DNA of 64,000 nucleotides from Geosiphon pyriformis uo1 (GCA_016748015.1 JAAOMT010000571.1:1360524-1424523), one strand, 5' to 3'. Positions 1-64,000 are shown, counted from the first letter of the stretch. A program made the numbers and translations. The notes: generated from the sequence alone by a model not told the origin.

Positions 1-1104
1 TGGTACAATGTAAAAGTACTTTGTTTTCAATCTTGAATTCAACTGGTTTATCTAATAATTGGTTATATTGTCATTTTTTTTGTTTTTTTTGTGATCTTTG
101 AATGTTATTAGCTGCTCTTTGTCTTTTGTTTTTTAACATTTTTATTAAGTTATATGTTCTTCTCAACAATGTTTTCTGGAAGTTAACTTTTGTTATTGGT
201 TTTATTAAATATGTGTTGATGTTTATTTCAACTGGTAATATTGCTGTTCTACTATAAACAAGTTTAAATAATGTTGTTTGTGTAGTATCTTGCTTTATTG
301 TCTAATAAGCAAATAATACTAATAGTATAAACAAATTCCATTCATTCTGGTTTTTTTGGCTGATTTTTGCTATTGCTTTACACAATATTCTGTTGAACTT
401 TTCTACTAAGCCATTTGTTTGTAGATAATATAAGGATAATAATGGTTTTTTGATCTTAAATTTTTGACTTAATTTTGTTAATGTTTTGTTTACAAAGTGA
501 GTTTCTTAATCAGATAATAATTTTTTTGGACATCCATATTAACAAATCAAGTCTTGGTGGACAAATTTGGCTACAGATTCTGCATCTGCTCTTTGAATTG
601 TTTTTGCTTTTGGCCATTTTGTAAGATAGTTCATAGCTATTGCTATGTACTTATTGCCTTTACTAATTATTATTAATGATCCAACTAAGTCAATTTTAAT
701 TTGATCAAATAGTTGTCTCACTTTAATTGGTTTTAGTGGTTCACTGAGTTTTGTTCCTTCTCTTTTTTGACAAGCATTACAATTTTGAATGTATTAAATA
801 ATGTTTGAATACATAGATGACCAATAGTATCTTTTTCTGGTTTTTTTTATGGTTGCTTCTTTATGAAAATATCCTGCTGTTGGATCTGAGTACATGTTAA
901 ATAGTATTGTTTTTTCTTTGATTTTGTAATTATTCTGAGTGGTTGATTTGGATATTTTCTGTTCTTCTAATATAATATATCTTGGTAAGTAATAAAATAT
1001 TTTGATTGTTGTTTTATGTTGTTTTGTTTCTTTTGAAATAATTTTTTCTAAAACTGTTGAGTATTAATATAATATTAGAGTTATTAATATTTTTGTGTAT
1101 TTAT
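1..1104 (-). pseudogene. int: Integrase ORF of copy A (partial, many stops)
   Basis: Core motifs IDLVG and YLTKWP; start codon decayed to ATA at 1104-1102. Confidence 0.85.
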
Positions 1105-1134
1105 CTTTTGTTATATTTTTGAGTTGAAATGTTC

Positions 1135-4100
1135 TTAGATTTGTTTTATTTATGACAAATCATCAACATTTCTGTTTTCTTTATCTTTTTTATAATGTAC
1201 TGTATAATTAAATGGTGATAGTTTTATTTTCCATCTTGCATAGTAGTTGTCTTCAAATTCTTGCTTTTGGATTAATGTTAATTTTTTGTAATTAGTGTAT
1301 ACATTAAAATTTTGACTCAAATATTCTTTCTATTTTATAACAACTCAATAGATAGTTAAATATTCTAATGCTAAAGTTCTATAGTTCTTTTCAATTAGGC
1401 TTAAGCTTCAGCTGGGATATATTACTAAGTGTTTTTTTTTATCTGGTTTTTTTTGAAATAATATGGCTCCTAATGCTTAACTTAATACATTGGTAGTAAT
1501 AATGAATAACTTGCTGTGATCTGAATAAATTAGTACTAGTGCTTGAATAAGCTTTTTTCTTAAGATGTTAAAAGCTTTTTGTTGGGTCTCAGTCTATTTA
1601 TATTTCACATTTTTTGCTTGGAGCTGGTAAAGTGGTTAAGCCAATTTGGAGAATTTTTGAATAAAGTGGTAATAGTATTCAGCAAATTCCAAGAATGCTT
1701 TTAATTCCATAAGATTTGTTAGTACCAAAAAGTTTTTAAAAATCTTAATTTTGTCTGGATCTGTTTTAATGCTGTTTTTGCTCATAATATGTCCTAAAAA
1801 TTTCAGTTTTGTTTTGCCAAAGAAGCACTTGTTTGTGTTTAGTTTCAATCTGGCTCTTTTTAATTTTTCAAACACTTATTAGAGATAATAGAGATAATCA
1901 TTAAATGTCTTAAAAAACACATTGGTATTATCTAAATACATGACTACTAATTTTTATAGTAATTCAGTGTAAACAATTTTCATAAGCCATTGAAATATGG
2001 CTGGTATGTTGGTTAGTCCAAAAAGCATAACATCAAACTCAAAATTTCCTTCTCTAATTATAAATATGGTCTTTTCCTTATCTTTTGGTTTTATGGCTAC
2101 TTGTTAGTACCCACTGTCTAGATTCAATATTGAAAACTATTTTTTTCCTCCAAATGCATTGAATAGTTCTTAAATTCGTGAAGTTAAATAGCTGTTTCTC
2201 TAAGTCACACTATTAAGCTTTTTGTAATTCACACAAAAGTGGATTTTTTCATTTTTCTTCTGGATTAATACTATTGATAATGACTATGGACTCATTAATA
2301 GTTGAATTAATCTGTTGTTCAATATTCTATTGATTTCTTGTTAAATGATTTTATGGCTTGTTGATGGTACTCAATATGCTTATTGTTTAATTGGTATAGT
2401 ATCTTCAGTTTTGATCTGATATTAGATGATATCAGTTCTGCCAAATTCGTTTTTACTGGCAAAAATGTTAGTAAAATTATTGAGTAGTATTTTAAGCTGT
2501 ATATGTTGAAGTGGGTCTAAGTTTTCCAAGTTTATTTGGTCCAATTGTTTTGGTTAGAGCAAATAATATTCTTTTCATCCATATATTGTTTGTGATGTAA
2601 TATCCACATATCTGTACAATTGTAGAAAATCTAAAATAGTGTTTGGTGGTTGGTTTTTAATTTTAGTGTTCAAATATTCAATAGTAATTTCACTTGATAT
2701 TTTAATAGTGTTTTTAGTTGTATTGTAGATAGAAATTTTAATGTACTTACAGTTCTTAGCCAGTATATAGAAATTGGTAATTCTAATCTTTTTTGATTCA
2801 CAAATAGTTGGTTTTACTTCAAAAATCTGGGGCTGATTTTTTATTTTCCTTTCTATTACTAACATATACTGGTTATATGGTGAAATAGAAACTGATTCAT
2901 TGGTGGAAATAATTTCTTCTTTATCAATAGTTTTTTCTTCTGTTATATTGACTGGTATATCTATTTTACTTATGGACCCAAATCCATTTTTTCTTCTTGC
3001 TGTAATTACTAACTCTTCCCTTTTTTTTACTAAAACTAATTAGGCTATTTTAATTAAAGACAGGAATATTGCTTGTACTATTTTTTCATTTGGCCCAATA
3101 ATATATGGTTTTTCTGAATCATTTTGTATCATTGCAATAATATTTCTTACATATTTTGTGTCAATTATTTCTTCTCGAATACTGATTTTTTTCTTGGTTA
3201 AACTAGATCTGAATGCTATTTGAACTATTGTTGTTGCTGAGATTTCCAATGCTATTTTTAAATCAATACAAGTCTGTGTATTAGGCTCTAATGTTATGGC
3301 ATATTTTTTTAAATACCTTAGAACAAATTCTGTATTAGTATTATGTGCACATTCTGGCATAATATCTTTATTATTATCACTAAACTATTTTAGTTCTTGT
3401 TTCATAGATAGATCTGAAAGTGTGATATATTGCTTGAATTTTAAATTAGAGTTTAAATTGTCATTGTTGTTGTTATAGTAAACAGAGTTAGAATCATTGT
3501 TGTTATTATTATCAGAGTCTAAATCAGGATTGAGTTTCAATTTTGATTCTACTGCTTACTTGCTGATTGGTTTTTTCTTTTTGGGAATTGAATAGATCAT
3601 TTGTGGTGGTAGATTATAAATGAGATCACAATTGTTATAGTATTCAAAATCACTAAGAATCAAACAGTGCTTGTATAACTTTGTATTTAATTGTTCTAGC
3701 CTTTGTTTCTGTTCTTTTTTAGTTGGTGTTAGATTCTAATAGTGCTTGTGAATTTGTTCTAGATTATTTTCAATGTTATTAACAATGTCAAATATGAAAA
3801 TGTATTTGGGTTCAAAGAGTATAAGTGAGTTATTTTTAATTTTCAGTAGTTCATTGGATGTAGCACTTTTAACTTTAGTACTTACTATTTTTCAGATCTT
3901 GTGTTTATCATATAAATAGCTTTTTAAACATTTCAATATTCATTTCCAGATGTTGTTAATTGGAGTTTTTTTTTGTATCCAATTATTGATTAGAATTGTG
4001 TATTGACATATTTTGTCACATGTTTTTTTTTGTCCAGGAATGTTGTTTCATATTCCTTTGTTAAGAAAAATTATTTCACATGTGAAACAAGGCTTGTTAT

Positions 4101-17300: not shown

Positions 17301-18452
17301 AGGCTAATTTAATCATTAATAAGCCTATGATTATTACCAGTAGTACTAATTCATAAAAAAAATGGGAAAATCCGCTTTTGTGTAAATTACTGGAAACTGA
17401 ATGGAGTAACCAAAGGAGATAGCTACTTAATACCAAAAATCCAAGAGCTGTTTGATGCTTTTGGAGGAAAAAAATGGTTCTTAACTTTAAACTTAGACAG
17501 CAGTTACTAACAAGTTGCCATGAAACCAGAAGATAAAAAGAAAACAGCTTTTATAACTCAAGAAGAAAATTTTGAATTTGAGATTATGCTATTTGGCTTG
17601 ATGAATGCTCTAGTCATATTTCAACAACTTATGAAAATCAGTAATTGTATATCTGGATGACATCAATGTGTTCTCCAAAACATTTGATGATCATCTACAC
17701 TATCTCCAACAAGTATTTAAAAGACTAAGAAAAACCGGATTGAAATTAAATGCAACCAAGTGTTTCTTTAGAAAAACAGAACTCAAGTTTTTAAGACATA
17801 TTGTGAACAAAGACGGTATTAAAACAGACCCAGATAAGATTGAGATTGTTAAGAACTTTTCAGTACTAAATAATCTCACAGAATTAAGAGCATTTTTGCG
17901 ATTTGCTGAATACTACTGCCATTTTATCAAAAACTTTTCCAAAATAGCTTAACCACTATATCAACTCCAAACAAAAAACACCAAATATAAATGGACTAAA
18001 GTCCAACAAAAAGCCTTTAACACACTGAAAAAAAACTGATTTAAGCTCCAATATTGATCTATTCAGATCATAGTAAGCCATTCATAATTACAACAGATAT
18101 ATTGGATCAAACATTGAGAGCAGTACTATCTCAGAAAAAATTAAACAGATGAGAACATTCAGTAACTTATGCCAGTAGAAACTTAAGTTCAGGTGAAAAG
18201 AACTATGGAACTTCAGTACTAAAACACTTAGCTATCTATTAGACTGTTATCAAATGGAAAGAATATTTGAGTTAAAAGTTTGATGTATACACTGATTATA
18301 AAGGATTGATTTCAATTCAGAAGCAAAAATTTGGAAACGACTGCCATACCAGATAGAAAATAGAACTTTTACCATTTAATTATACAGTACATTACAAAAA
18401 AAGAAAAAAAAACAGAAATGCTGATGGTCTGTCATAAATAAAACAAATCTAA
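11341..18452 (+). pseudogene. gag-pol: Gag-PR-Cys-rich-dUTPase-RT-RNase H of B, interrupted by a solo LTR
   Basis: Same-frame gag/PR fragments (11341, 12607, 13477); CYYCGKQKHLQFEC knuckle; ILDSGS protease; dUTPase in 16053-16628; YLDD at ~17648. Confidence 0.92.
13872..14841 (-). repeat. Solo LTR of another family inserted in the protease of B, TSD ATGG
   Basis: TGTTAT...GTAACA termini; ATGG at 13868-13871 and 14842-14845; removal restores KVNGIII. Strand inferred from polarity of the A-rich tract. Confidence 0.85.
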
Positions 18453-18483
18453 AAATATTTTAAACCCAAAAATATAACAAAAG

Positions 18484-19866
18484 ATGAATATACAAAAATA
18501 CTAACAACTCCAACATTATATAAATACTCAATTGTTCAAGAAAAAATTATCTCAAAAGAAACAAAACAACATAAAACAGCAATTAAAATATTTTATCAAC
18601 TATCAAAATATACTTTATCAGAAAAACAAAAGAAATCTAGATCAACTAACCAGAGTAATTACAGAACCAGAAAAAGAGACAATATTATTCAACATGCACT
18701 CAGATCTAACAGCAAAATATTTTCACAAAGAAGTAATCATAGAAAAAATCAGAAAAAGATATTATTAACCATCAATGTATCCAGACATTATTTAATATGT
18801 TTAAAGTTGTAATGCTTGTCAAAGAAGAGATGAAACAAAACCCAGTGAACTATTGAGACCAATCAAAGTAAAACAACCATTTAATTGTATTAGAATTGAC
18901 TTGATCAGACCATTAACAATTATCAGCAGAGGCAACAGATATATTGTAGTAGCCATGAATTATCTCACAAAATGGCCAGAAGCAAAAGCCATTCAAAGAG
19001 CAGATGCAGAATTCATTGCTGAATTCGTCCATCAAAATTTGATCTATTGACACAGATGTTCAAAAAAACTATTATCAAATCAAGGAACTCACTTTGTAAA
19101 TAGAACATTGGCAGAATTAAGTCAAAGATTTGGGATAAAAAGACCATTATCATCACCATATTATTCACAAACAAATGAGTTAGTTGAAAAATTCAACAGA
19201 ACACTGTGTGAAACAATAGCCAAGATCAGCCAAGAAAACCAAGATAAATGGAATTTGTTCATACCATTAGTATTATTTGTTTACAGGACAATGAAGCAAG
19301 ACACTATACAAGCAACACTATTTAAATTAGTATACAGTAGAACAGCAACATTACCAATTGAAATAGAAGTCAGAACATATCCAACAAAATCAATAACAGA
19401 AGAGAATTTTCAAAGAACATTGTTGAGAAAAACATATGACTTAATGGAAACACTAGAAAACAAATGGCAAAAAGCAGCTGATAACATCCAAAAGTTACAA
19501 GAAAAACAAAAAGAAAGACATAATAACCAACTACCAGATAAACCAGTTGAATTCAAAATTGGAGACAAAGTATTTTTACATCATACCAAAGCAAAAAAAC
19601 AATGAAATAGAAAATTTGACCCCAAATAGAATGGACTATTTTACATAGAAGGAATTCTAGAAAATAGAGCTTATAAATTAAAATGAAACAACAAAATCTT
19701 AACCAAAGCAGCACATGGTGATTGACTGAAACTATATTATCATATAGTGTTATCATCTACCAGTAATATTCCACAATTAGGAATACAGAGACTACTAGTT
19801 CAATCAAATGAAATTCCACGAGATCTGAAACCAATCATAGTTATTAAATCAAACACATCAAATTGA
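18484..19866 (+). pseudogene. int: Separately encoded integrase of B
   Basis: Own ATG at 18484; HHCC remnant (NMHSD...CNACQ), IDLIRP, ELVEKFNRTL, GPY/F-like region; no chromodomain seen. Confidence 0.9.
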
Positions 19867-27904: not shown

Positions 27905-28781
27905 TGTTATGGTTTAAGAATTTAGCAAAAAGAATCATAAAAATAATACAAACTATTCAATCATAATATAGCACAGTAATGATCTTAGAAAGGTAATGAT
28001 TAACATAGTAGCAAACACCATCTCGCGATAGTGGCAAGCACCAGTTCACAATAGCAGCCAACACCAACTGGTGATAGCAGCAAACACCAGGTTGAAATAT
28101 CAAAAAAAAGTATTACAATGTGTTTTCTTGTAGAACTACAAACATGTATATATACAGTAGTTTTAATATTGGGAAATAATTAATCAAGTAATAAAAATCA
28201 TAACTTATCAAGCAATAGATCCAATTTTATCCAACAAACTCCACTTTAAATCATACTTTCAAATTAAATATCCCAAGAAACCTTTAAAATCAAAAAGAAA
28301 TGAAAAAGAATATTTAAAACTGAACTATTACAACCCAAAGTATTAAGAAACTTACTTGTATTATTTATTGAATGAAACTATCATTCATCAACTGAATCCC
28401 TTGGAAAAATAATCCTTGATCAAGATTATTCATGTTGTTATTAATTGATAAAAGCTTTATTGTAAGAATTAGAAAAGTGCTAAAAGACCATTAACATTCT
28501 GTGTTTCTAGAGTAAAGAAACACATCAGGCAATTGCAAGGATAGCCTCAGAGAAGACCCCAAACAGTGGGTAGATTTCAGTTCAGCCTCTGAAAAGAAGT
28601 ACATAAACACACACAACAATCAAGAATCGAAGAATAACTTACATTGCAACAGTAAAAAGAAAGCCTTCAGTGTAACAGTGACATTATCACACAAATAAGA
28701 ATTGAGGAACTCACGAAAGACTGATTGCAATTAAAACAGGATATCAGCAATTAAATATAACAAGAAAACTATTCCGTAACA
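27905..28781 (+). repeat. 5' LTR of D
   Basis: TGTTATGG...CCGTAACA; about 97% identical to the 3' LTR pieces. Confidence 0.95.
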
Positions 28782-28800: not shown

Positions 28801-28863
28801 AAAGAAAATCAAAAAAGAAATAATAATTAGCAATAATTTATTGCTAAAAAGGAAAAGACAAAA

Positions 28864-31800
28864 GTGGCAACAAAAACCCCTAATCTTACTGTTCTTGAAT
28901 TCTGCCGTGCTATTTACACACAAAATCAAAGTGATCTTGGATTACCAGAAGGGTGTTGTCCAGTAGAATCTGCTCTCACTTATTATATCAACACCAGAAT
29001 AAATTATCATATAGGAAAGGAAGAAGAACCACACGACACAAAACTTGGATTGTATAGAAAATTATCACAATACACTACAAAAAAAGTAACAGTAATAGCC
29101 ACAACTATTGTCAAAATTCATCAAGAAATTGAGCAATACACCAATAAAAATTTTCCAATATCCACAGGAAACACTAGAGAACATGCCAACAAAACCAAAG
29201 AAAATTTAGAAACTAATCAGGAAAGTAACCAGCAAAAACTAGAAACACCAGCTCAAACGCCAAAGAAAACTGTCACTCAATTAATAAAGAAACAACGTAT
29301 TTATTTACCAGAAGATAAATCATACCATTTTTCACCAGAAAATAAAATACAAATTCTATTAAGAGCTGCATCATCATCAACATCAACTCCACAAACACTA
29401 AGAACTCCTAGTTATACTGATAAAATTAAACAACGTAACTGGGGAGACATACCAATTACAGGAGGATATTCATCACTATTCCAAAACCCTTTTTTTCAGC
29501 CAAAATTTAGAATGGGGTTTGAAAACCATGAAGAAGAATCTGAATCGGAATCCGAAAAAGAGACCAGCGAAAAAACAATTACAAGACCAGTCACTGGAAC
29601 AAGCAGCCAGTCCAGAAACCAAGAAACTCATGATCAAGAGGAAGAACCGGATATAAGGGAAGCCACCTTTAGGAACGCTCAAGGAAATATCATCCCACCT
29701 CCTCTTAGACCAATAAACCCACCAGCAAAAAACGGCAACAAAATAACCACACCATACATTGCAAGACTAACAAATTTCTCAGGAGAGGAAGAAGAAACGG
29801 ACATGCACACATGGCTCAGAGAAGCACAAAAAGCCATCCAGGCAAATAACTGAAACGACCAAAGAGCAATTCAAACATTACCTTTCTTCCTGAAAAGCAC
29901 AGCCAACTCGTGGTATCAAAGCCTGGAAACAAAACCCACGAGCTTCGCCAAATTTAAAAATGCACTCCTGAAGTATTTTAGCGACCCAAACGCTGTAATC
30001 CAACTACAGAACAAATTCAATACTATCAAGCAAAATACCGGTAAAACTGTCACCCAATACCTTGCTCAATTCAATCAAATTCGCCATCAGATTGAAGTGA
30101 TTGAACAAGGATACTACACTGATTCTCAGGTTTTAAATCAGTTTATTAGAGGATTAAAAAACAGCATTTTAGGAAGAGTACACCCTGCCCACCCTAATTT
30201 CTTATCAGAAGCCGTTATACTTACCAGAGCCCTTGAATCGGCTGAGAAAGAAGCTAATCATAGTTAAATGGTTAACATGGTAATGGAGGAAAATAAGACA
30301 GAAACATTAGAGAAAAGAGTAATGCAATTAGGGGAGGAACTCTTTAAGAAAATAGAAAGTTACCTCATCCCGGATCTGAGAAAAAATACATACCAACCAC
30401 CCCAAAGACGCAGCCAGGAAGTCAGCGACAGTCGAAATAATTGCTCGTCATGCCAGGAATTCAGAACAGAAACACATGCCTGCCATTTTTGCAAACGCAT
30501 AGAACATTTGATTAGTCAATGTTGAATGTGAATGATGCAGGAAGCATGTGAAAATAATTACTACGTGCCACCCCAAATGCCCAGAAACCAGTACATGCCA
30601 ATACCATGCCAATATCCCACCACGTATCAAAATCAAGGAGCTTACCAACAACAGCCCATGATAGCCAACCTGAATTGGCGTCCCGAGGCCCGAAATCAGT
30701 CCATGTGGAACCAGAACGCGTTGGTCCAAAGGAATCCAAACTGCACCGGAACCAATCAGCAAACCAATTCAAACTACCAAAATTATCAACAAACTTACCT
30801 TAATATACCAGAAAATCTGATCATCGGAAACAATGACGGTAGAAACATAAACAGAACCAAGAATTTCTTCAAATTGAGCCAGACAATACCACTAGTAGTT
30901 GCCACCAAAGATAGCAGCCTTGCAGCTATTTTTTCTTTTGAATTAGAGAAAAACGAGGCTATGTTCAGTGTAGCAGCATTGGACAAAAAACGCCCAATCA
31001 CTACTATGTATACCAAAGCCACTGTAAACAATACCCCAATCAAACTTATCTTAGACAGCGGATCTGCTGGAAGCATTGTAACACTTCAAAGTTGATCATG
31101 CTGTGACATTCCAAATCATAACAGCTGATGGAAGTACAAAGCTGCCTCATGGTGAAATCAACTCATTCCCTTTCGAAATTAATGGCATAGTAATACCTAC
31201 AAAAGTATTAGTAATGGACGTTACACAATATCAAGCATTAGTAGGGAATGACTGGCTAACAAAAGCCAATGCCACCCTAGACTGGACCACCCAAGAGCTT
31301 CTGATAAATTATAATGGCCACCAGGCCAAAATTCCAGCCACCTGTGGCCACTTCCAAAAACCCAGCGCCAACTAAAGACCTACCTTCGAATTTGAGGAAA
31401 ATCCAGCACTACCAGCCATTGGAACCTATCAGCTCTCTTGGGCTGATGACCAAAGAACAGGACTACCAGCCGTACCAACATGGACCAGCGAAAAAAGATC
31501 CGAATGGAACCAGGTAAGTTCACGAAGAAACCACCAGCAACGCAGACCAAAGCTAGAATGCTCGGTTTGTAAGAAGAAACTCTCGTCTATGACTGCATGC
31601 AGCACACCGGACAAAGACCCAAGAAACCCCACCCACTACTATTGTAACCATTGTAACAAAGAAAAATACGGTTACCCAGAAAGACATGGAAAATGGGACG
31701 AGGAACCGTGCCTCGCTTGTGGAGAACCATTACCAAAAGGGTGCGACTGAAACGACATACCAGGCAGAAGAGGAATGTGTGATGCAACTTGCCAATACAC

Positions 31801-34549
31801 AATTCTCATCTGTGACTGGGTAAGAGGAGGAACGCCGTTCAAAGCAGTGTTCAACAGAGTGTTAAAAAGACTACAGCACTACCCACATGACGAGGACGAG
31901 TTGTACAACACCACACAAGCCAAAGTAAGAGGAGAAACCGCCAAAAAAATATGATGTTGGAAAGAGTTAGCTGAAGTAGCCAATGAAGTCACCAGCTACA
32001 ACATGTTCGACCCAGTGGACGAATTTCAGAACTACTACCAACAACTATGCCCCACTCAACAAGAGCAAGAACAATACTTCACCCAAATCAACACTTATCT
32101 CTGCGAAAACTGTCTCATCCCATGCCAAAATCAGTGCTGTGAAGAGTGTTAAGATGAAAGAGACTTAGAAAGAAAAATGGAAATTGAGAATCAGCAGTCT
32201 CAAAATCAATCAATAAATCAACAAGACTCACCTGACGATCCTGAGTCAGAAAAATTTGTAGCCTATACTGACCTAGAACAGATGACCAACATCCAATACT
32301 TCAACAATGGGCACTTAGGAATAATACCCAAAAGAGCCCATCCAACCGACACCGGATTTGATCTACGTTATCTGGAAGACCAATCTACAATGTTACCACC
32401 CAAGAGCATCACCAAAATCGACCTAAAAATAGTGGTTGAAATTCTGCCAGGAATAATGGTTCAAATGGCATCACGATCAAGTCTCGCGAAAAAAGGAATA
32501 AGTGTTCAAGAAGGAGTAATTGACTCCGGATACACTGGAAATTTAATGGTTTTGCTACAGAACAATTCAGAAAAGCCTTATACTATTGAATCTAAGAAAA
32601 AGATTGCACAAGCAATTTTCTTACCATTGGTAAAAATTGGGAAATTCATGCCAGTGGAAAATCGTGAGGAATTGTCACAAACAACGAAAGGAACTTTTGG
32701 TTTCAGATTAACAGGAAAAGGAATTGAAGTGAATTTTGCTAAAACAATAGAGGAAAAAAGCGAAGTAATTAAAAATGAGCAGTCCATCACACTCTTACCA
32801 TATGGAAAATCAGAAATAAGAATAAAAAAGACAATTAAAGAAAAAGACCTAATATTTGAGCCCTATCCAGAAACTTGCCAACAGTTTCTCATAGGACTTA
32901 CTAACCTTTTTATTCCAGCTGATAAAGCTCAATGGATAAAAATTCCTATCACAAACACTACAGAAGAACCCATTTACATTCCGGAAGATACCATCATTGG
33001 ATACCTCGGAATGGAGCTAGAAAATGCGTCAACACCACAAGAAATTCTAAATTTCTCAGAAATCGCCCTCTATTGTGAACTCACTTCAATAAATTGGCAA
33101 CAACTGTTAGAATGCTATCAATTTACGCCAAAAGAATTGGCCAAATTAAACATTGGAACAATGGATCCTGACCAACAGCGACAATTAAAAGCATTAATTT
33201 TAAAATACTCTGATATATTTTCAAGAAATGGCGAATTTGGAAGAACCAACTTGGTTCAACACCAAATCCCCACTGGAGACGCCAGACCTGAAAAACAACG
33301 CACTTACCGTGTCCCACCAATGGAGCATAATTTTATCAGAGAAGAAGTCCAAAGCATGTTGGAAAAAGGAATAATACAACCATCAATAAGCCCATGGTCC
33401 TCACCAGTTGTTTTAGTAAGGAAAAAGAATGGAAAAATTAGATTTTGCGTCGACTATCGCAAACTAAACAGCAAAACAACCAAAAACTCATACCCAATAC
33501 CATTAATTGATGAAATCTTTGATGTTTTTGGAGGAGCAAAATGGTTTTCTACACTGGACTTGACCAGTGAGTACTGGCAAGTGGAAATGGACCCAAAGGA
33601 CAGGCATAAAACAGCATTCACAACACAAAATGGCAATTATGAGTTCAATGTAATGCTATTTGGATTAACAAACACTCCTGCGACATTCCAAAGACTAATG
33701 GATGTAATTTACTTTGGAATCCTGTGGCAATCCGTTGTTGTCTACTTGGATGATACAAATGTTTTCTCATCAAAATTCACAGATTATTTCCAACATTTAC
33801 AACAAGTTTTTGAGAGATTGAGACATGCTGGACTTAAACTAAATCTAGAAAAATGTTTCTTTGGGAAAAATGAGCTAGCATTTTTAGGACACATAGTTGG
33901 AAAAGATGGAATAAAACCAGATCCATCAAAAATAGACAAAGTGAAAAATTTTCCAGTATCTCGAAACGTTTCAGAAGTTAGAAGCTTTTTAGGACTCGCA
34001 TCTTACTACCGCCACTTTGTAGAAAACTTTTCAAACATCGCCAAACCCCTTAATTATCTACTATCTAAAAATGTGAAGTTTGAATGGACTGAAGCACAAA
34101 AAAAAGCTTTTGAGTACCTTAGACAAAAGTTCATTGAATCACCAATAATGATCTATCCGAATTTCAACAAGAAATTCATTTTGGCCACAGATGCCTCTGG
34201 AACTGGACTTGGAGCCATTCTGTCACAAAAAGATGATAATGGAAGAGAACGTGTAATTGCTTATACCAGCAGAAGTCTCAGTACAGCAGAACAAAACTAT
34301 GCAGCACATAAACTTGAATGTTTAGCAGTAGTTTGGAGTTGTGTTCACTTTGACACATATTTACGGTACCAACCCTTTGAGATTACGACAGATCATAGAG
34401 GTCTGGTCTGGTTAAATAACAAGAAAGCACTAAAAGGAAAATACACCAGATGGTCACAAACGTTAGCACCATACGATTATATTATCAAATACAAAGAAGA
34501 TACCAAAAATGCTAATGCCGACTGTTTGTCAAGAATAAGACACACATAA
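28864..34549 (+). pseudogene. gag-pol: Gag-PR-Cys-rich-dUTPase-RT-RNase H polyprotein of D (few stops, one inferred 23-nt deletion at ~31090)
   Basis: ORFs 28864, 30268 and 30532 are in one frame; CHFCKRIEHLISQC; LILDSGS; 790-aa ORF with RFCVDYRKLN, YLDD, TDASG, TDH, NADCLSR. Confidence 0.96.
32330..32719 (+). CDS. dut: Trimeric-type dUTPase domain inside Pol of D (homologues at ~2970-3360, ~16255-16650, ~47325-47720, ~52758-53150)
   Basis: Five motifs: DTGFDL, RSSLA, GVIDSGYTG, IAQ, KGTFGFRLTG (decayed RGxxGFGSTG). Confidence 0.93.
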
Positions 34550-34578
34550 AAATTACCAATCCATCCACCACAACAACA

Positions 34579-35386
34579 ATAAACAACCACCTTTACAAAA
34601 ATCTCAGCCAATACTTGGAAACACTACAAATAGACAAAGAAATGCCAGTAAAAGAGCTAATTAAGCTCCAAAAATTAGCAAAACACTATTTCATCCAAAA
34701 TCACATACTTTATTACTGGAATCGACAAAATCCAGATAATCCATTAAGAGTTATAACTACGGATGAAAAAGAAACTATCTTATTTAACATGCACTCAGAT
34801 ATTTATTCAGGCCACTTTGGAAAAACAGCAACCATCCAACGTGCAACTAGCCATTACTATTGGCCAAAAATAAGTTCAGACATAATCCAATACATAAGAA
34901 NNNNNNNNNNNNNNNNNNNNTGAGATTACGACAGATCATAGAGGTCTGGTCTGGTTAAATAACAAGAAAGTGCTAAAAGGAAAATATGCCAGATGGTCAC
35001 AAACGTTAGCACCATATGATTATATTATCAAATACAAAAAAGATACCAAAAATGCTAATGCTGACTGTTTGTCAAGAATGAGACACACATAAAAATCACC
35101 AACCCACCTGCCACAACAACAATGAACAACCATCTTTACAAAAACCTCAGCCAATACTTGGAAACACTACAAATAGATGAAGAAATGCCAGTAAAAGAGC
35201 TAATTAAGCTCCAAAAATTAGCAAAACACTATTTCATCCAAAATCACATACTTTATTACTGGAATCGACAAAATCCAGATAATCCATTAAGAGTTATAAC
35301 TACGGATGAAAAAGAAACTATCTTATTTAACATGCACTCAGATATTTATTCAGGCCACTTTGGAAAAACAGCAACCATCCAACGTG
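34579..35386 (+). pseudogene. int: Integrase N-terminus of D, present twice around gap 34901-34920 (starts 34579 ATA, 35122 ATG)
   Basis: NMHSDIYSGHFG (HH of HHCC), YYWP; separate frame from Pol. Confidence 0.88.
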
Positions 35387-35437
35387 NNNNNNNNNNNNNN
35401 NNNNNNAGATTCCAAAATAGCAGTCAAAATTAAAACA

Positions 35438-36106
35438 ATGATACTTATTCCAGAAAACATCAACAATATAACTCAACAATTAGTTGAAAGCTTACAACAA
35501 TTAAAATCTGATCTAGAAATCACAGTTAATAGCTCCAAAATAACATACATAAAAAGAACAATAAAAAATCCAAAAACAAGAAAAGAACATAATTTTGAAC
35601 CATATAATATTACCAAATATAACAACAAATTTATTAGCAAAGTTATTGAAAAATTAGAAATAGCATTGGGCAATACATTAATAATGGAAGAAATAGAAAT
35701 AAGTGAATTAACACCAAACACATTTAGCAACTTGAAAACAAAATTTCCAATTAATTACTGTTATTATCAACTAGGAAAGCACTTAAACATACAAACATTA
35801 TACTCAAAAGACTCAACTAAAGTGTTTGACAAAACAACTATCCAACTATTAGAACTTTTCATTGGAAAAACCAACACTACATTCCATTCAAAAACAGTTT
35901 ACAGAATTTTCAAAGCATTTGAAAACTGTCACAAATTATTGTTGGACCCAACCATGAACATAATAACAACCAACAGTATTGAACGACTTACCAACTCACA
36001 ATTTCAAGAATTATAACAACAAATTAATAACACAGTATTGAACCACTATAGTAACTTAGAATTTAATAAAGAAATTAACTTCGATTTCGATGGAGCTCAA
36101 TCTTGA
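35438..36106 (+). pseudogene. ORF3 of D, unknown ~222 aa protein with one internal stop (36014)
   Basis: MILIPENINNITQQL...YCYYQLGKHLNIQTLY...LTNSQFQEL...FDGAQS*; stop overlaps PPT GAAAGGAGGGG. Confidence 0.88.
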
Positions 36107-36119
36107 AAGGAGGGGATAA

Positions 36120-36417
36120 TGTTATGATTTAAGAATTTAGCAAAAAGAATTATAAAAATAATACAAACTATTCAATCATAATATAGCACAGTAATGATCT
36201 TAGAAAGGTAATGATTAACATAGTAGCAAACACCATCTTGTGATAGTGGCAAGCACCAGTTCACAATAGCAGTCAACACCAACTGGTGATAGCAGCAAAC
36301 ACCAGATTGAAATATCAAAAAAAAGTATTACAATGTGTTTTCTCGTAGAACTACAAACATGTATATATACAGTAGTTTTAATATTGGGAAATAATTAATC
36401 AAGTAATAAAAATCATA
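36120..36417 (+). repeat. 3' LTR of D, first 298 bp (last 108 bp at 37299-37406)
   Basis: Aligns to 27905-28202 with 7 transitions. Confidence 0.93.
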
Positions 36418-36437: not shown

Positions 36438-37278
36438 GCCAACGAAAAGGAGGAGCAAAAACAACGGAATTATTAAGACCAATAAAAGTTGGACAGCCAT
36501 TTGACAGAATCAGAATTGATTTAGTTGGACCCTTACCAATAACAACAAGAAACAACTGTTATATTGCAGTAGCCATGGACTATCTCACCAAATGGCCAGA
36601 AGCTAGAGCTATTAAAACAGCTGATGCTATTTCCATAGCTCAATTTGTACATGAAGACTTAATTTGCCGACATGGATGTCCACAAGAATTGCTATCAGAT
36701 CAGGGCACACACTTTGTAAACAGCACCTTAAAAGAATTTAGCCAAAAATTTGGAATCAAGCGACCACTGTCATCACCATACCACCCTCAAACAAATGGAT
36801 TAGTTGAAAAATTTAATCGCACATTATGCGAATCACTGGCAAAAATTAGTAACGAACATGAAAAAGAATGGGATTTGTTCATACCAACAGTACTACTAGC
36901 ATATAGAACAGTAAAACAAGATACTACACAATTCACACCATTTGAACTAATTTATAGAAGAAAAGCCACATTACCAGTTGAATTTACTATCCCAACTTAT
37001 CCAAGTGACACTATCACGGAAGCAACATTCCAGGAAACATTACTTAAAAGAACATACGAATTAATAGGAACTTTAGAAAACAAAAGAAGAAAAGCAGCAC
37101 AAAATATTGAACAATCACAAGAACAACAAAAAGTGAGACATGATAACCAGTTACCAGATAATATAATTAGCTACAAAATTGGAGATAAAGTATTGTTGCA
37201 TCGTACAAAAATGGAAAAACAGTGGAGTGGAAAATTTGATCACAAGTGGGATGGACCATTTTATATTCACAAAATACT
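36438..37278 (+). CDS. int: Integrase core of the D family on a mis-ordered contig
   Basis: IDLVGPL, LLSDQGTHF, NGLVEKFNRTL (D,D35E), WDGPFYI; bounded by N gaps. Confidence 0.93.
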
Positions 37279-40200: not shown

Positions 40201-41041
40201 ACCAATTGACTTCTTCAAAAATTTGTCTAAAGAACACTTCATAAAACGTTTCCACCCATTAACATTTACACCCTTTAGCTTGAATTTCCGGTGATCTTTA
40301 CTTGCCTGTTTGCACAAACCCCCCAAATGAACATTTAAAAGCCCATCCAAGTCCACTAAAACTAAGACAGCTTTATGATCAGTATCAAAAAATTTAGACA
40401 CAGAGTTGACTTTGTGACTGGCCATTGCTGAGATTAGGTTCTCACTAATCAAGATGTAATCAATAACTTTTACAACACCCTTCAAATTGCTCCATATAGA
40501 AGCTCTAGCTAAAGGATGTCCACCAAAAAATTGACTAAGCCTAGACCCAAAAAAAATCTATAACTCACACTTTTCTTAGATCTGCCCTTATTAAAATCAC
40601 CACCCAAAACAACAAAACTGCTGGAGTTGACCACTCGAGTTATGAAAAAATTAATACCAGATGTCTGTTCAAACTGGTTACCAGAAGAGGCACAAGTGTA
40701 CAAACCAATAATTGAGACTGAAATCTTGCCCTTGAAAAGAAGATGCACTGAAATAACATGATCAGAAATCTCTTTTATCTTGAAAACATGTCGAGCCAAA
40801 GAATTGTTCATAATTATTGCCACCCCAGTCCCAAGAAACCCACTATTCAGGCCAGATGTAAAAATGCGCACTCCATCAAATCTGTTCATAATTCATGGCC
40901 TAACATTAGATCTTAATTTTGTTTCCATAACAATAGATACCATATTTCCAGACTTTTTGTGCCAATAAACAATGTCTTTCTGCTTAACAGAAACATTGAG
41001 ACCTTGAACATTACACATAGCAAACTTCCATACTAGCTCCG

Positions 41042-42486
41042 TCATTGAAAAGAGAGAGCAGCAGGAACCAAATTGGCATTGTCCATTTTGGCTGATAGGC
41101 CCATAACTATGATTGCAAAATTTTTTAAAGTGTTCTCCATTTTTTCAATAACAGAAGAATCAAAAATCACCACCCCTACAACAATCTCACTACCAGTGGC
41201 CACACTTAAACTCTCACTTATCATTATATTCATCCCTTGATTCTGTAATGAAGGGGTCACCAATGGCTGACATCCAGGGCTAAGCTGGGAAACCATTGGC
41301 TCAGGTGCTTCCAACCTCTTAGCCAGCATATCAACATGTTCTGCAAGGCTGGCAAAACTACACTCAAGAGCGGCAAACCTATCATTGATTTCCATCACAA
41401 CCAGTAGGAATGACTTCATCTCCAAAAAAAAGCCAATATTCACTGAAACAATCTGGCTAGAAAGAGGAGAAAAAAAAGATCTACCAGCTATCTTAGCCCA
41501 AAAAAGACCACCAAAAGAAACAGAACGAGCAACCAAAGCAGATTATTTGGCATAAATTGCAGCCAGTCTGCTTTTATCTGCATCTGAAAGCACTCTATGC
41601 AATGAGCTACCAGAAAAAATCTTCCTACCCTTAGTACAGCTTAATAATATATAACCCAGCTTCTCATACTTGGTGTATTTGGCAGACATAAAACTAAACC
41701 AATGCAAATTAGTGTCTTTGAGCACTGGTATGGTTCCCATAATAGCATCCAATGATTCAACAGAATTGAAACAAACAACAGTACACCTAACCCAGGCATA
41801 TGTAACTGGATGATGATTGATGACACATGTTTTCCCACCCACAAATCTAACAAAGTTTCAGATATTATGAGCATTAGTCCCTATTGGCAGTATGTAGAGC
41901 AGCATCCTATGATGATCCTTTGCATCCCATGATTCTTTGTCTGAATCAGCTCTAACAACATACACAGCATTCTTTTCAATTAAGATGGACTATTTAGCTG
42001 CGACCAAATTAGCATAATCTGACTGCTCAAATTCTACCATTGCTTTCTGCCACAGTCTCACCAATTGCATCTTGATTGACTTAATTATTCCAAACTCAAA
42101 TAGTGTAGTACACACAGCTTCAGCCAATGTTTCAACTGGAATTTTCTTAACCACCACAGCTTGATCTGAATGACCAGGTGATTTTTTGAGATCAGTGTTT
42201 ACTAAAATATTCACTGCTCTTGCCTTTTCTGTAGCCTGCACCAAACTAGATTTGGAAGTAAAAGAAGCATGAATAATCTCTAAGAACTTTGAGGAAGTAG
42301 AGGCCTTCTCAAAACCATTGACTTTTGAAAATAGTTTTTTGACCACCACTTGCTTTTTCTAAGAAGATTTCCCAGCCACCTTATCCAGCTCAATATCTAT
42401 AGCAAAAGATTTCCAGATAGAAATATTGACCAAATTCTTCAAGAGAAGAGGAAAAACCACAGAAGTATTTAAAAGAATGTTATCAT
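41042..42486 (-). pseudogene. LINE ORF1 (RRM-like repeats, decayed CCHC knuckle, C-terminal coiled-coil-like region), N-terminus missing
   Basis: VVVKKIPV...KAMVEFE and GGKTCVI...CTVVCF RRM-like segments; AKYTKYEKLGYILLSC; directly upstream of ORF2. Confidence 0.8.
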
Positions 42487-44078: not shown

Positions 44079-45455
44079 TTATGTGTTTGGTTCAATAATT
44101 ATGATTGGTTCCAGATCTCGTGGAATTTCATCTGGTTGGACTAGTATTCTCTGTACTCTTAATTGTAAAATATTACTGGTGGATGATGATACTATCTGGT
44201 AATATTGTTTCAATCAATTACTATGTACTGCTTTGGTTAAAATTTTGTTGTTCAACTTTAATTTATAAGCTTCATTTCCAAGAATTTCTTCTATGTGAAA
44301 TAGTCCGTCCTATTTGAGGTCAAATTTTCTACTCCATTGTTTTTTTGCTTTGGTACAATATAAAAGTACTTTGTTTCCAATCTTGAATTTAACTGGTTTA
44401 TTTGGTAATTGGTTATTGTGTCTTTTTTTTTGTTTTTTTTGTGACTTTTGGATGTTATCAGCTGCTTTTCATCATTTGTTTTCTAGTGTCTCTATTAAGT
44501 CATATGTTCTTCTTAACAATGTTCTTTAAAAATTTTCTTTTGTTATTGGTTCTGTTGGATATATTTTGACTTCTATCTTAACTGGTAATATTGCTGTTTT
44601 ATCATATACTAGCTCAAATAGTGTTGCTTGTATAGTGTCTTGCTTTATTGTCTAATAAACAAATAATACTGATAGTATGAACAAATCTCATTCGTCTTGA
44701 TTTTCTTGGCTAATTTTGACAATTGCTTCACACAATGTTCTATTGAATCTTTTGATTAATTTATTTGTTTGCAGATGGTATAGTAATAATAATGGTCTTT
44801 TGATTCCAAATCTTTGGCTTAATTCTGCTAATGTTCTATTTACAAAGTAAGTTCCTTGATCAGATAATAATTCTTTTAGACATCCATGTTGACAAATCAA
44901 GTCTTGATAAACAAATTCGGCAACAGATTTTGCATCTGCTCTTTGAATGGCTTTTGCTTCCAGCCATTTTGTGAGATAATTCATGGCTACTGCAATATAT
45001 CTGTTGCCTCTGCTGGTGATTGTTAATGGTCCAACTAAGTCAATTCTAATGTAATCAAATAGTTGTTCTATTTTAATTGGTTTCAATGGTTCATTGGATT
45101 TTGTTCCTTCTCTTTTCTGACAAGCATCACAATGTTGAACATATTAGATGATGTCTGGATACATTGATGGCCAATAATATTTTTTTCTGATCCTTTCTAT
45201 GATTGCTTCTTTGTAAAAATGTCCTGTTGTTGGATCTGAGTACATGTTGAACAGTATTGTCTCTTTTTCTGGCTCTATAATTACTCTGGTTGGTTGATTT
45301 AGATCTTTTCTGTTTTTCTGGTAAAGTATATTTTGATGATTAATAAAATATTTTAATTGTTGTTTTATGTTGTTTTGTTCTTTTTGAGATAATTTCTCCT
45401 TGAACAATTGGGTATTTATATAATATTGGAGTTGTTGGTATTTTTGTATATTTAT
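44079..45455 (-). pseudogene. int: Separately encoded integrase of E
   Basis: ORFs 45144-45407 and 44688-45086 (IDLVGPL, LLSDQGT). Confidence 0.9.
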
Positions 45456-45492
45456 CTTTGTTATATTTTTGGTTGGAATGTTTTTTTTTTTT

Positions 45493-47882
45493 TTAGATTT
45501 GTCTTATTCACAACAAACTGTTAGCATTTCCATTGTCTTTTCTCTTTTTATAATGTACTGTATAATTGAATGATAAAAGTTCTATTTTCTATCTAGCATG
45601 GTGATTGTCTCCAAATTCTTGCTTTTGGATTGAAGTTAATCCTTTGTGATCAGTGTACACATCAAACTTTTGATTCAAGTATTCTTTCCACTTGATGACA
45701 GTCCAATAAATAGCTAAGTGTTTCAGTGCTGGAGTTCCATAGTTCTTTTTAGCTGGACTTAAGCTTCTACTTGTATAAGCTACTAAATGTTCTCGTCCAT
45801 CCGGTCCTTTCTGGAATAATACTGCTCCTAATGCTTGACCAGATGCATTAGTTGTGATTATGAATGGCTTGCTATAATCTGAATAGATTAGTATTGGAGC
45901 TTGAATAAGCTTTCTTCTTAATGTATCAAAAGCTTTTTGCTGAATTTCTGTCCATTTATATTTGGTGTTCTTTGTTTGGAGTTAGTGTAGTGGTTAAGCT
46001 ATTTTAGAAAAGTTCTTGATAAAGCAGCAGTAGTATCCAGCAAATTCCAAGAATGCTCTCAATTCTGTAAGATTATTTAGTACTAAAAAGTTTTTAACAA
46101 TCTCAATCTTGTCTGGATCCATTTTAATTCTGTCTTTGCTTACAACATGTTCCAAAATCTTGAGTTCAGTTTTTCCAAAGAAACATTTAGTTGTATTTAG
46201 CTTTAATTTGGCTCTTCTTAGTCTTTCAAATACTTGTTAGAGATGATGCAAATAATCATTGAATGTTTTTGAGAACACATTGGTGTCATCCAAATATACA
46301 ACTACTGATTTCCATAGTAGCCTAGTATAAACAATTTCCATAAGTCACTGGAAAGTGGCTGGAGCATTCATCAAGCCAAATGGCATTACTTCAAATTCAA
46401 AGTTTTTTTTTCGAGTTGTAAAAGCCATTTTCTCTTTGTCTTCTGGTTTCATGGCTACTTGCCAGTAATTGCTGTCTAAGTTCAAAGTTGAGAACCATTT
46501 CTTTTCTCCAAAAGCATCAAAAAGTTCTTAGATCTTTGGAGTTGAATAGCTGTCTCTTTTTGTTACTCTATTCAGTTTCTAGTAATCTACACAAAAGTGA
46601 ATTTTTCTATTTTTTTTATGGACTAGTATTACTGGTGATGACTATGAATTCATTGATGGTTGAATTAGTCTATTCTCAAGTATCTGATTGATTTCTTGAC
46701 AAATAATTTCATGACTAGCTGGTAGTACTCTATATGCTCTCTGTTTAATTGGCATTGCATCTTTAGTCTTGATTTAATGTTGGATAATGTCAGTTTTGCC
46801 AAATTCATTTTCACTGGCAAAGATGTCACTGAAGTTGTTGAGTAATATCTTGAGTTACATCTGTTGAAGTGAATCTAAATTTCCCATGTTTATTTGTTCT
46901 AATTGTTCCAGTTGGAGCAAATAACATTTACTTTGTTCATAAATTGTTTGTGATGTGATGTTGACATATTCATAAAGTTGTGGAAAGTCTGGAATGGAGT
47001 TTGGTGGTTGGTCTTCTACTTTTGTGCTTAGATATCTGATGATGGCTCCTTCTGGTATTTCTACAATATTTCCTGTGTTGTTATAGATGGGAATTTTGAT
47101 GTGATTATGGTTCTTAACTGGTATGTGGAGATTGATGAGTCCAATCTTTTCTGATTCACAAATGGTTGGTTCAGCTTCAAAAATCTGCACTTGATCTTTC
47201 ACTTTCTTATCTATAGTATACATGTATTGGTCATATGGTAAAATGGAGATTGATTGATGGATTGAGATAATTTTTCTTTTGTCAACAATTTTTTCCTCTA
47301 CCATATTAACTGGTACATCTATTATATTTGTTGATTCAAATCTCTGTATTCCTCTTACTGTTATCCCTAGTTCTTCTTTATTTCCCACTAATACTAACTG
47401 AACTATTTTTACCAGAGGTGGAAATATTGTTTGTGCTATCTTTTCATTTGACTCTATGATATAGGTCTTTTTCGAATCACTTTGTAGCATTGCAATAATA
47501 TTTTCTATATATCCTGTGTTAATTATTTCTCTTTTAATGTTGATTCTCTTTTTTGTTAAGCTACTTCTAAATGCTAATTAAACCATTGTTGTTGCTGGGA
47601 TTTCCAGTGCTATTTTGAGATTAATGCAAGTGCCCAAATAGGGTTCTAATTTGATGGTGTCTTTTTTTGGATATCTCAGATCAAACCCTGCATCAGTATT
47701 ATGCACACATTCTGGCATAATATCTTTATTATTATTACTGAACCATCTGAATTCCTGCTCCTTGAAAAGATCAGAAAGCATAATATATGTTTTGGGATTT
47801 GCATTGGAGTCTGAATTGTTACTAATTTTGTTGCCATATTGAGTAGAGCTGAAACTGTTGTTTTCATCATTATTGTTGTCAG
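45493..47882 (-). pseudogene. pol: dUTPase-RT-RNase H part of Pol of E
   Basis: DAGFDLRYP in 47578-47892 ORF; YLDD at ~46286-46297; ends ...RQI* at 45493. Confidence 0.9.
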
Positions 47883-54800: not shown

Positions 54801-54983
54801 AGCCAGAAGTTTGAAGTATACACAGATCACAAGGGATTAATATCACTCCAAAAACAAGAATTTGAAGATAAAAGACAGTCAAGATGGAAAATGGCACTCG
54901 CACCATACAATTATACTATACATTACAAAAAAGGAAAAGATAATAGAAATGCTAACAGTTTGTTGTAAATGAGACAAATCTAA
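48808..54983 (+). pseudogene. gag-pol: Gag-PR-Cys-rich-dUTPase-RT-RNase H of G
   Basis: Gag and PR in one frame; LILDSGS; 340-aa dUTPase-containing ORF 52758-53780; YLDN (decayed YLDD); ends MRQI*. Confidence 0.93.
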
Positions 54984-55045
54984 GAACATTTTAACACAAA
55001 AATATAACAAAACCAGAACAATACCAACGAAAAATATAACAAAAT

Positions 55046-56429
55046 ATGAACATACAAAAATATTAACAACTTTAACATTATATAAACACTCAACAGTTCA
55101 AGGAAAATTTATCTCAAATAGAACAAAAGAGTATTAAACAACAATCAAAATATTTTATTACTCACCAAAATATACTTTATCGGAAAAATAGAAAAGATCC
55201 AAATCAACCAATCAGAGTAATAACAAAGCCAAAAAAAGAGACAATATTATTCAACATCCACTCAAATCCAACAGCAGAACATTTTCATAAAGAAGCAATC
55301 ATAGAAAAAACCAGAAAAAAATACTATTGGCCATCAATGTATCCAGACATCATCTAATATGTTCAAAATTGTGATGTTTGTCAGTGAAGAGGAGGTACAA
55401 AACTCAGTGAACCGTTAAGATCAATCAAAGTAGGACAACCATTTGACTGTATTGGAATTGATCTAGTTGGACTATTAACAATCACCAGCAGAGGAAACAG
55501 GTACATAGCAGTAGCCATGGACTATCTTACTAAATGGCCAGAGACGAAAGCAATTCAAAGAGTAAATGCAGAATCTATTGCCGAATTCATTTATTAGGAT
55601 CTGATCTGTTGACATGGATGTCCAAAAGAATTATTATCAGACCAAGGAACTTATTTTGTAAACAAAACATTAACAGAATTGAGCCAAAAATTCAGAATTA
55701 AGAGACCACTATCATTATCATATTATCTACAAACCAATAGATTAGTTGAAAGATTCAAACAGAACATTGTGTAAAGCAATAGCTAAATTCAGCCAAGAAA
55801 ACCAGAATGATTGGGATTTGTTGATACCATCAGTACTATTTGCTTATCGGACAATGAAACAAGATACTACACAAGCAACACCATTTGAATTAGTATATGG
55901 TAAAGCAGCAATACTACCAGTGGAAATAGAAGTCAGCACATATCCAACCAAACCAATAACAAAAGAGAATTTCAAAAATACATTGTTGAGAAGAACATAT
56001 AACTTAATAGAAACATTAGAAAACAAATGACGAAGAACAGCTGATAACATACAAAAGTCACAAGAGAAACAAAAAGAAAGACATGATAACCAACTACCAG
56101 ATAAACCAGTTGAATTCAGGATTAGAAACAAAGTACTCTTACATCATACCAAAGTGGAAAAACAATGGAGTGGAAAATTTGACCCCAAATGAGACGGACC
56201 ATTTTACATAGAAGAAATTCTAGAAAATGGAGCTTACAAATTAAGATTGAATAACAAAATTTTGACCAAAACAGCACATAGAGATCGACTGAAACCATAC
56301 CACCATATAGTATCATCATCCACCAGTAATATTCCACAATTAGGAGTACAGAGAATACTAGTCCAACCAGATGAGATTTCACAAGATCTAGAACCAATCA
56401 TTATTATTGACAACAACACGTCTAATTGA
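55046..56429 (+). pseudogene. int: Separately encoded integrase of G
   Basis: ATG 55046; CDVCQ, IDLVG, LSDQGT, DGPFYI. Confidence 0.9.
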
Positions 56430-63892: not shown

Positions 63893-64000
63893 TGTTACCA
63901 AACAAAATTAGAGATATTATTTAGCATGAAATTATCTTATAATTTCTATCATTAATTAGCATATATTATTGTTTCAAATTATCACTTATTACATTAGCAA
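63893..64000. repeat. Probable start of another LTR interrupting the LINE
   Basis: Begins TGTTACCA, the reverse complement of the TGGTAACA at 61993-62000; LINE homology stops here. Confidence 0.45.

Follow-up and report, generated by a model that had tools for sequence, protein, structure and literature searches.

The 64,000-nucleotide stretch JAAOMT010000571.1:1360524-1424523, referred to as a whole as the window, consists mainly of decayed transposons, including five Gypsy-type long terminal repeat (LTR) retrotransposon copies designated A, B, D, E and G (Table 1). In this Ty3/Gypsy family the integrase is, with near certainty, a separate open reading frame (ORF) that follows the Pol stop. 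At all six RNase H-integrase junctions of the window, RNase H is followed by a TAA, a spacer of 29-62 nt and an ATG or ATA at the integrase start, and in each copy the TAA lies four codons past the LSR position of RNase H. Given as the first base of the codon on the coding strand, the stops (and spacer lengths) are 1137 on the minus strand (30 nt), 18450 (31 nt), 34547 (29 nt), 35090 (29 nt), 45495 on the minus strand (37 nt) and 54981 (62 nt). The integrase start is an ATG at 18484, 35122 and 55046 and an ATA at 1104 (minus strand), 34579 and 45455 (minus strand). The spacers consist of 73-90% A+C, contain neither GT nor ATG and are unstructured in folding. The integrase frame of copies A, B and G is closed by a stop 6 nt ahead of the start, and the DNA of copies A, B, E and G is free of gaps from RNase H into the integrase core.

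A preliminary description of this DNA, made from the sequence alone, had proposed a stand-alone integrase ORF, and this layout was recovered at six of six window junctions and in 52 of 52 relatives (see below). Its stop coordinates and spacer lengths were exact when the window was re-read, and its ATG and ATA calls were borne out; the junction with the stop at 35090 is added here. It had also described five copies as ending in NAD(G/C)LSR-x(4)-TAA. The position of the TAA stands, but the clean motif is found in D only, and the decayed copies read a stop for the Arg codon. It had treated the 34547 stop and the 35122 ATG as one junction; both are real sites but belong to separate pieces, D1 (stop 34547, ATA 34579) and D2 (stop 35090, ATG 35122), which differ at 18 of 466 positions and have a 20-N gap between them. 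The D integrase core is placed behind the 3' LTR and flanked by 20-N gaps, and copy D is therefore a scaffolding mosaic. The D2 integrase start position matches that of 92 of the 120 listed homologous proteins.

Table 1. Features of element D and RNase H-integrase junctions of the other Gypsy-type copies in the window
Feature	Position	Strand	Evidence or remark
5' LTR of D	27905..28202	+	97.7% identity over 299 nt to 36119-36417; starts TGT
gag of D, interrupted by stops	28837..30267	+	Retrotrans_gag E 1e-14, Ty3_capsid E 3e-11 on 29854-30264
pol of D: dUTPase, reverse transcriptase, RNase H; ends ...NADCLSRIRHT-stop	32153..34549	+	798 open codons; Pfam dUTPase, RVT_1, RT_RNaseH
D1 spacer, 29 nt, A/C-rich	34550..34578	+	86% A+C; without GT, AG or ATG; unpaired in folding
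D1 integrase N-terminus, start is ATA	34579..34900	+	97.7% identity to D2 N-terminus; N gap at end
D2 RNase H end (second copy or haplotype)	34921..35092	+	TAA 35090-35092
D2 spacer, 29 nt	35093..35121	+	90% A+C; without GT, AG or ATG
D2 integrase N-terminus, ATG in ACA-ATG-A, MNNHLY...	35122..35386	+	Weak Integrase_H2C2, E 0.0013
ORF3 of D, 3' of integrase	35408..36016	+	Shared with copies B, E and G and with L003, a relative
Polypurine tract of D	36105..36119	+	Read from sequence
3' LTR of D	36120..36417	+	Interrupted by N gap
D-family integrase core and C-terminus, misplaced between N gaps	36440..37278	+	rve E 2e-13
Copy A junction: TAA, 30-nt spacer, ATA	1102..1137	-	
Copy B junction: TAA, 31-nt spacer, ATG	18450..18486	+	
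Copy E junction: TAA, 37-nt spacer, ATA	45453..45495	-	
Copy G junction: TAA, 62-nt spacer, ATG	54981..55048	+	

Apart from the position of the integrase, the window elements look like ordinary Ty3/Gypsy elements. The LTRs show TG...CA ends, with TGT at the start of the 5' LTR of D and GTAACA at the end of the G LTR, and a polypurine tract precedes the 3' LTR of D. The Pfam families Ty3_capsid, Retrotrans_gag, RVT_1 and RT_RNaseH make up the gene set, the order is protease-reverse transcriptase (RT)-RNase H-integrase, and the integrase carries HHCC, DDE and GPY/F motifs. A dUTPase lies ahead of the RT. For the target-site duplication, which comprises 4-6 bp in Ty3/Gypsy, the flanks of G match at three of four positions, and the D flank falls within a gap. 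An integrase inside Pol is a typical trait of the Ty3/Gypsy family and not its phylogenetic definition, and we therefore file the elements as a Ty3/Gypsy (Metaviridae) variant with the integrase outside the Pol polyprotein, likely of a fungal host.

To find relatives, proteins of 154-490 residues were searched with an integrase-core profile, which gave 1369 matches, of which 120 were listed. The alignment of 92 of these 120 stand-alone homologues begins at profile position 1, where each of the 92 starts with Met-Asp/Glu/Asn. The best 120 RT-RNase H homologues (proteins of 438-1397 residues) comprise 94 that end within 50 residues past RNase H, 10 with a longer integrase-free tail and 16 with an integrase. 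Named matches came from Rhizophagus irregularis and R. clarus, and further searches added Cetraspora and Dentiscutata; the host of the family is thus likely a Glomeromycotina (arbuscular mycorrhizal) fungus. Two family members (P0081 and P0213) are labelled as proteins of Bacillus metagenome-assembled genomes and probably represent fungal DNA in bacterial bins.

A scan of metagenome contigs yielded at least 581 related stretches, and 80 loci, ranked by their likeness to a stand-alone integrase, were kept. The count of split and fused forms is based on the 52 loci with an RNase H match upstream. The remaining 28, which have no more than about 1.2 kb of upstream DNA, were left out; many of them carry the hairpin described below and belong to a clade with a long Pol tail. 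After removal of L029 (shorter N-terminus, start mis-called) and the near-duplicates L036, L045 and L048, 48 non-redundant junctions remained. A stop precedes the integrase in 52 of 52 loci, and none is fused. The integrase frame is offset from Pol by 0, +1 or +2 in 14, 17 and 21 loci, respectively, the spacers measure -20 to 943 nt, and 33 loci have an integrase-frame stop inside the spacer. An ATG is present at the homologous integrase start in 51 of the 52. Terminal LTR pairs of L011, L017 and L067 are 97-99% alike. No relatives were found in viral contigs.

The preliminary description had proposed a search of related genomes for the same layout and had argued that the layout is not decay. 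In the contigs the layout recurs at all 52 loci; among the 29 that are long enough to contain the RT, both frames are intact in 22. This supports a split that is ancestral to the family and not a product of decay. The argument from spacers that cover all three reading frames rests on the relatives. The window gives weak evidence for it because A, B and E apparently have a single spacer of 30-31 nt in common, altered by run-length slips, and in G this spacer appears to be doubled in tandem. The old copies A, B, E and G have a CpG observed/expected ratio of 0.07-0.15, against 0.5 in D; C to T and G to A changes predominate among related contigs. Composition and substitutions together indicate decay by cytosine deamination.

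The integrase AUG looks like a real start. A purine at -3 is found at 42 of the 48 non-redundant junctions (56% at internal ATGs) and a purine at +4 at all 48. The encoded protein starts with MD, ME or MN in 48 of 48 cases, compared with 19 of 136 after internal Met residues; such N-termini are substrates of NatB acetylation. It is the conservation of the -3 purine, of Met-Asp/Glu/Asn and of the AUG-poor spacers that speaks for this assignment.

A second downstream cistron follows the integrase. An ATG-initiated ORF of at least 90 codons (ORF3) lies 3' of the integrase in 28 of the 34 loci with enough DNA, and many of these ORFs are homologous. Members of the ORF3 family have 120-240 residues (e.g. 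window 35408-36016 and L071 5455-5871), and in 7 of 25 cases ORF3 lies at most 32 nt from the integrase stop. The window ORF3, which sits between the integrase and the polypurine tract, is linked to the larger family weakly, via L003. For one member a confident all-helical domain was predicted (pLDDT 96.6). No shared Pfam family was detected in 26 members, and no Foldseek match at E 0.001 was obtained in PDB or BFVD, the Atlas matches being weak leads only. L028 encodes a different 314-residue protein after the integrase (1945-2886), with an apparent Nudix-type motif recognized by eye.

How is an integrase behind a stop codon translated? For the short-spacer family of the window we favour, with evenly balanced confidence, a restart of translation on the full-length RNA. 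Ribosomes would finish Pol at the stop right after RNase H, cross the short, unstructured and AUG-free spacer and restart at the integrase's own conserved AUG; in relatives with long spacers an additional leader element would likely take over this role. Of the 41 junctions with spacers of up to 170 nt, 37 have no AUG at or past the stop that comes earlier than that of the integrase. In the 26 spacers of 10-110 nt, 5 AUGs were observed, compared with 15.2 +/- 2.9 in shuffled sequences, and only 1 of 1000 shuffles was as low. At 13 of the 48 junctions the two frames overlap or adjoin (-20 to +2 nt), with ATGA in four. In these 13 the previous AUG lies a median of about 21-22 nt back (background 30); for the 10 junctions of the window type, with spacers of 3-63 nt, the median is 32 nt (background 30). 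In both groups the AUG-free zone reaches back no further than the stop; a separate mRNA leader would hardly have space there, and restart is in keeping with this. Precedents for restart after long ORFs have been described for LINE-1, with a 63-nt spacer, and SART1 (passages of PMC5972666), and for fungal ribosomes with HvV190S and CHV1 (passages of PMC10275272).

Several observations weigh against restart. GTA is depleted in the spacers as well (3 observed, 8.5 in shuffles). Where the spacer measures 64-170 nt (18 junctions), the stretch without AUG reaches into Pol, by a median of 71 nt upstream of the stop; the 7 longer spacers contain 2-27 AUGs, yet are AUG-free for 82-188 nt ahead of the integrase. 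Some of these longer spacers are probably decayed Pol tails. The RNase H end shows no conservation of nucleotides across the lineage (same-codon ratios 0.85-1.16), and no conserved fold was found in the overlap and short-spacer groups. Restart after long ORFs usually requires an element. Chance can produce ATGA-type overlaps if a frame continues into ATG-A/G, and the relatedness of the loci makes the counts non-independent. Restart of the termination upstream ribosome-binding site (TURBS) type declines past about 30 nt and disregards the Kozak context, according to the part of PMC10275272 that deals with it, and the spacers found here reach hundreds of bases and the start context is strong. 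On balance, the signals in the sequence point to restart for short spacers and to a separate leader for long ones.

We consider it rather unlikely, but worth weighing first, that the integrase is instead translated by cap-dependent scanning on a subgenomic RNA, the product of an internal promoter or of splicing from the 5' end in the manner of env. A strict AUG in a strong context is what scanning would give, the long-spacer groups have AUG-free leaders of 82-240 nt irrespective of the stop, a GGAY/TGAY-like motif recurs in 11 related spacers, and ORF3 needs its own access as well. However, the AUG just upstream of the 13 overlapping or abutting junctions does not suit a scanned leader, nor does the AUG that D2 and G carry 10 nt ahead of the stop. 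The D spacers lack AG, and synonymous sites give no sign of a conserved acceptor or promoter. For the long-spacer relatives, a subgenomic RNA or internal entry would be a better fit than restart.

Less probable still is internal ribosome entry or RNA processing just upstream of the integrase, for which one sub-lineage appears to have a dedicated hairpin. This 36-nt element lies directly ahead of the integrase AUG and scores at least 49 bits in 22 of the 80 loci, with 2 more weak cases. The distance to the AUG is 0-13 nt in 20 of 21 pattern matches and 32 nt in the other. It occurs once per locus and, in near-complete loci, not ahead of gag or ORF3. A 3-bp stem, a one-sided purine loop of 11-12 nt and an 8-bp stem with a bulged A make up the structure. 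Pairing is found in 99% of the cells, with two-sided changes in 6 of 11 pairs; none of 500 shuffles reached this value, and slid controls were 22-53% paired. The hairpin may be regarded as a compact candidate initiation element. Its carriers belong mainly to one clade, plus L050. No Rfam match was obtained for 12 scanned loci, which included 7 carriers; the exact pattern was absent from viral contigs and had one match in prokaryote genomes, which does not pair and lacks an integrase. The covariation speaks for internal entry, but the motif was picked by eye, and its function is putative; it could be a protein-binding or reverse-transcription signal. The hairpin is also missing from the window, whose spacers are unstructured, and therefore bears on the lineage and not on the window copies.

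Two features of the relatives stand beside these signals. The 74-98 nt spacers of L001, L002, L004, L005, L007, L009, L010, L014, L016, L017 and L022 contain repeated GGAY/TGAY-like words that end near the AUG, with no evident fold. In L025, L036, L040, L051, L053, L071 and L074, which belong to the hairpin clade, Pol continues after RNase H with an acidic tail of 220-345 residues that carries a Cys/His-rich motif.

That the integrase is fused to Pol after all, whether by frameshifting, by read-through of the stop or by an intron that takes the stop out, is very improbable. The integrase frame in D is open for 57-63 nt ahead of the start, and four close gene models from Glomeromycotina (P0232, P0241, P0242 and P0246) join RT to integrase. 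These four lack the RNase H end (the profile stops at 146, 98, 136 and 90 of 157), as false introns would cause, and judged from the protein models, the joins appear to be falsely predicted introns. All three frame offsets occur among the relatives, and the integrase-frame stops in 33 of 52 spacers also speak against a fusion. Loci with an open shifted frame have no usable heptamer, with the exception of one +1 case. In the window, an in-frame X XXY YYZ heptamer is absent from the final 90 nt of D1, D2, A, E and G, and B has an A-run only, so that the preliminary statement that D has no slippery heptamer before its stop holds for both pieces. A possible in-frame GT-AG intron near the junction is lacking in 23 of 48 loci, and the others share no position; U12-type donors near the junction have no common position either. 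The intron candidates of the window differ between D and A/B/E/G, and nearly all would cut the RNase H end. The conserved initiator Met largely refutes a fusion.

The preliminary description had named a continuous RNase H-integrase frame and a conserved intron that fuses the two as the findings that would speak against a split layout. We found no conserved fusing intron and no fused locus among the 52 of the family, yet one genuine fused form, P0244, a continuous RNase H-integrase ORF, lies inside the wider clade. Longer proteins retrieved by searching were mostly distant ordinary Pols with 30-40% identity. In an RT and integrase tree of 37 chosen rows, the 21 split rows are united with P0244 in a single branch (support 99/97), in which P0244 is sister to the split L080 (support 100/99); a mixture model with 24 rows agrees with this placement. 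A strict single clade of split elements was rejected (p-AU 0.013, approximately unbiased test), since the fused P0244 groups with L080. One origin with re-fusion and two origins each need two changes. In the integrase-only tree, long-branch fused rows are also drawn into the clade. The nearest outgroups are ordinary fused Gypsy-type Pols, in trees that were built without a named Metaviridae reference set.

Decay or misassembly of the window, suggested by its damaged copies and the gapped mosaic D, can be dismissed as the source of the split, which recurs in 52 independent contigs, with both frames intact in 22 of these.

Textbooks explain both the dosage of integrase and its carriage into the particle by the polyprotein. 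The preliminary conclusion that a stand-alone integrase must be packaged in trans is unsupported as it stands: an intracellular retrotransposon could let its integrase meet the cDNA outside the particle, and Ty1 integrase overexpressed alone integrates DNA in yeast (passages of PMC2939329). The free integrase, which would need no protease cut, would reach the cDNA via its own RNA or a replication complex, or after the particle opens; the contact may be made through its own RNA, the RT, or the DNA after uncoating. As a whole, we only tentatively propose, and hold to be doubtful, a polycistronic LTR lineage (gag-pol, integrase, ORF3) in which the freed integrase is delivered without polyprotein packaging and in which several junction signals are interchangeable, including a new 36-nt hairpin that recruits ribosomes or directs RNA processing. 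No description of the layout was found in open-access full-text literature; subscription journals and Repbase lay outside this search, and a prior mention is possible.

A lineage without a polyprotein integrase makes it testable whether integrase needs to be packaged and by what route ribosomes of a fungus get to a second long ORF. Its junctions form a natural series (overlap, bare A/C spacer, hairpin) whose common denominator can now be tested. There are also consequences for annotation. Gene predictors apparently bridge the Pol stop with false introns, and a census that takes the rve domain as its criterion, as in the part of PMC5751038 concerned, may wrongly include stand-alone integrases among Ginger transposases.

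Some further observations concern the surroundings of element D. The region between protease and dUTPase (window 31376-32150) is Cys/His-rich, with only a weak PHD-like Pfam match. In run X2 (window 32035-33086 and 34408-35110), a 777-nt contig skips 68, 70 and 167 nt with CT..AC ends, which are canonical GT-AG introns if read on the minus strand, and another joint is compatible with a minus-strand intron whose donor lies within the spacer. This suggests spliced antisense RNA across pol, although X2 is listed, by guess, as DNA. Both runs, X1 and X2, contain a joint from 34895 to 36069, i.e. from the integrase N-terminus to just ahead of the polypurine tract, which likely stems from an internally deleted derivative without integrase core and ORF3. 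None of the joints listed in the sequencing runs (15 of 18) is a sense-strand GT-AG joint, but the cover is too thin for this to count as evidence. On the minus strand, window 37447-42733 and 63032-63907 hold decayed pieces of non-LTR retrotransposons, with endonuclease-, RT- and RNase H-like translations recognized by eye.

Compared with canonical Ty3/Gypsy elements such as yeast Ty3, the elements share the LTRs, the polypurine tract, the Ty3-type capsid, the gene order and the HHCC/DDE/GPF integrase, and among solved structures the integrase profile matches Ty3 Gag-Pol best (E 1e-54); here, however, the integrase is not part of Pol. Ty3/Gypsy elements encode one or two proteins with the integrase inside Pol (section of PMC12440569), and a separate ORF after RNase H is not among the five int positions given in the relevant part of PMC2774666. 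The fungal Gypsy elements PosPlaTy3-5 of Postia and Tmt1 of Tuber likewise have a dUTPase between protease and RT; they have one or two ORFs, and the part of PMC2864245 devoted to them mentions no separate integrase. Ginger1 resembles the present integrase in being a stand-alone Gypsy-type integrase of ~400 aa with a YPYY motif before the zinc finger (passages of PMC2836005). The corresponding Y/F-P-Y/F-Y/F is found at columns 12, 19, 38 and 46 in 20, 14, 21 and 22 of 22 integrase rows. In contrast to Ginger1, the integrase here belongs to an LTR element that also has gag and RT.

Identity with a Ginger1 DNA transposon was rejected for the 52 of 80 loci with RNase H directly upstream, given also the presence of LTRs and a polypurine tract. 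A direct sister relationship is unsupported, as two Ginger1-like proteins, labelled by their protease domains, fall outside the split clade. The elements are not Gmr1-like Gypsy elements, since the integrase is not upstream of the RT and integrase-first proteins form a separate clade, and a chromovirus was rejected because the chromodomain expected after its integrase (PF00385) is absent from the 120 listed stand-alone homologues. Foamy viruses express Pol apart from Gag and still deliver it to the genome; their integrase remains in Pol. DIRS elements have a recombinase ORF apart from the RT, but it encodes a tyrosine recombinase, a different enzyme class.

The AUGA/UAAUG-type overlaps in 5 of 48 non-redundant junctions resemble stop-restart in the fungal viruses HvV190S (victorivirus) and CHV1 (hypovirus) and in the TURBS of caliciviruses. 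The systems differ in that the present elements have no conserved upstream element, a strong Kozak context and many spacers far above 30 nt. The stop-start distance is -20 to +30 nt in 18 of 48 junctions and longer in 30, and the window has 29-31 nt plus 37 and 62 nt (TURBS about 20-30 nt). No excess of synonymous conservation or folding was seen 40-90 nt upstream of the stop, where a TURBS-type element would lie, although clade-specific elements could be missed. LINE-1 and SART1 likewise make a retrotransposon enzyme from a cistron past a stop, with a 63-nt spacer and a UAAUG overlap, respectively (passages of PMC5972666). They are non-LTR elements whose downstream ORF encodes RT/endonuclease, whereas in the present lineage the downstream ORF encodes the integrase and would be coupled to Pol over distances of -20 to several hundred nt.

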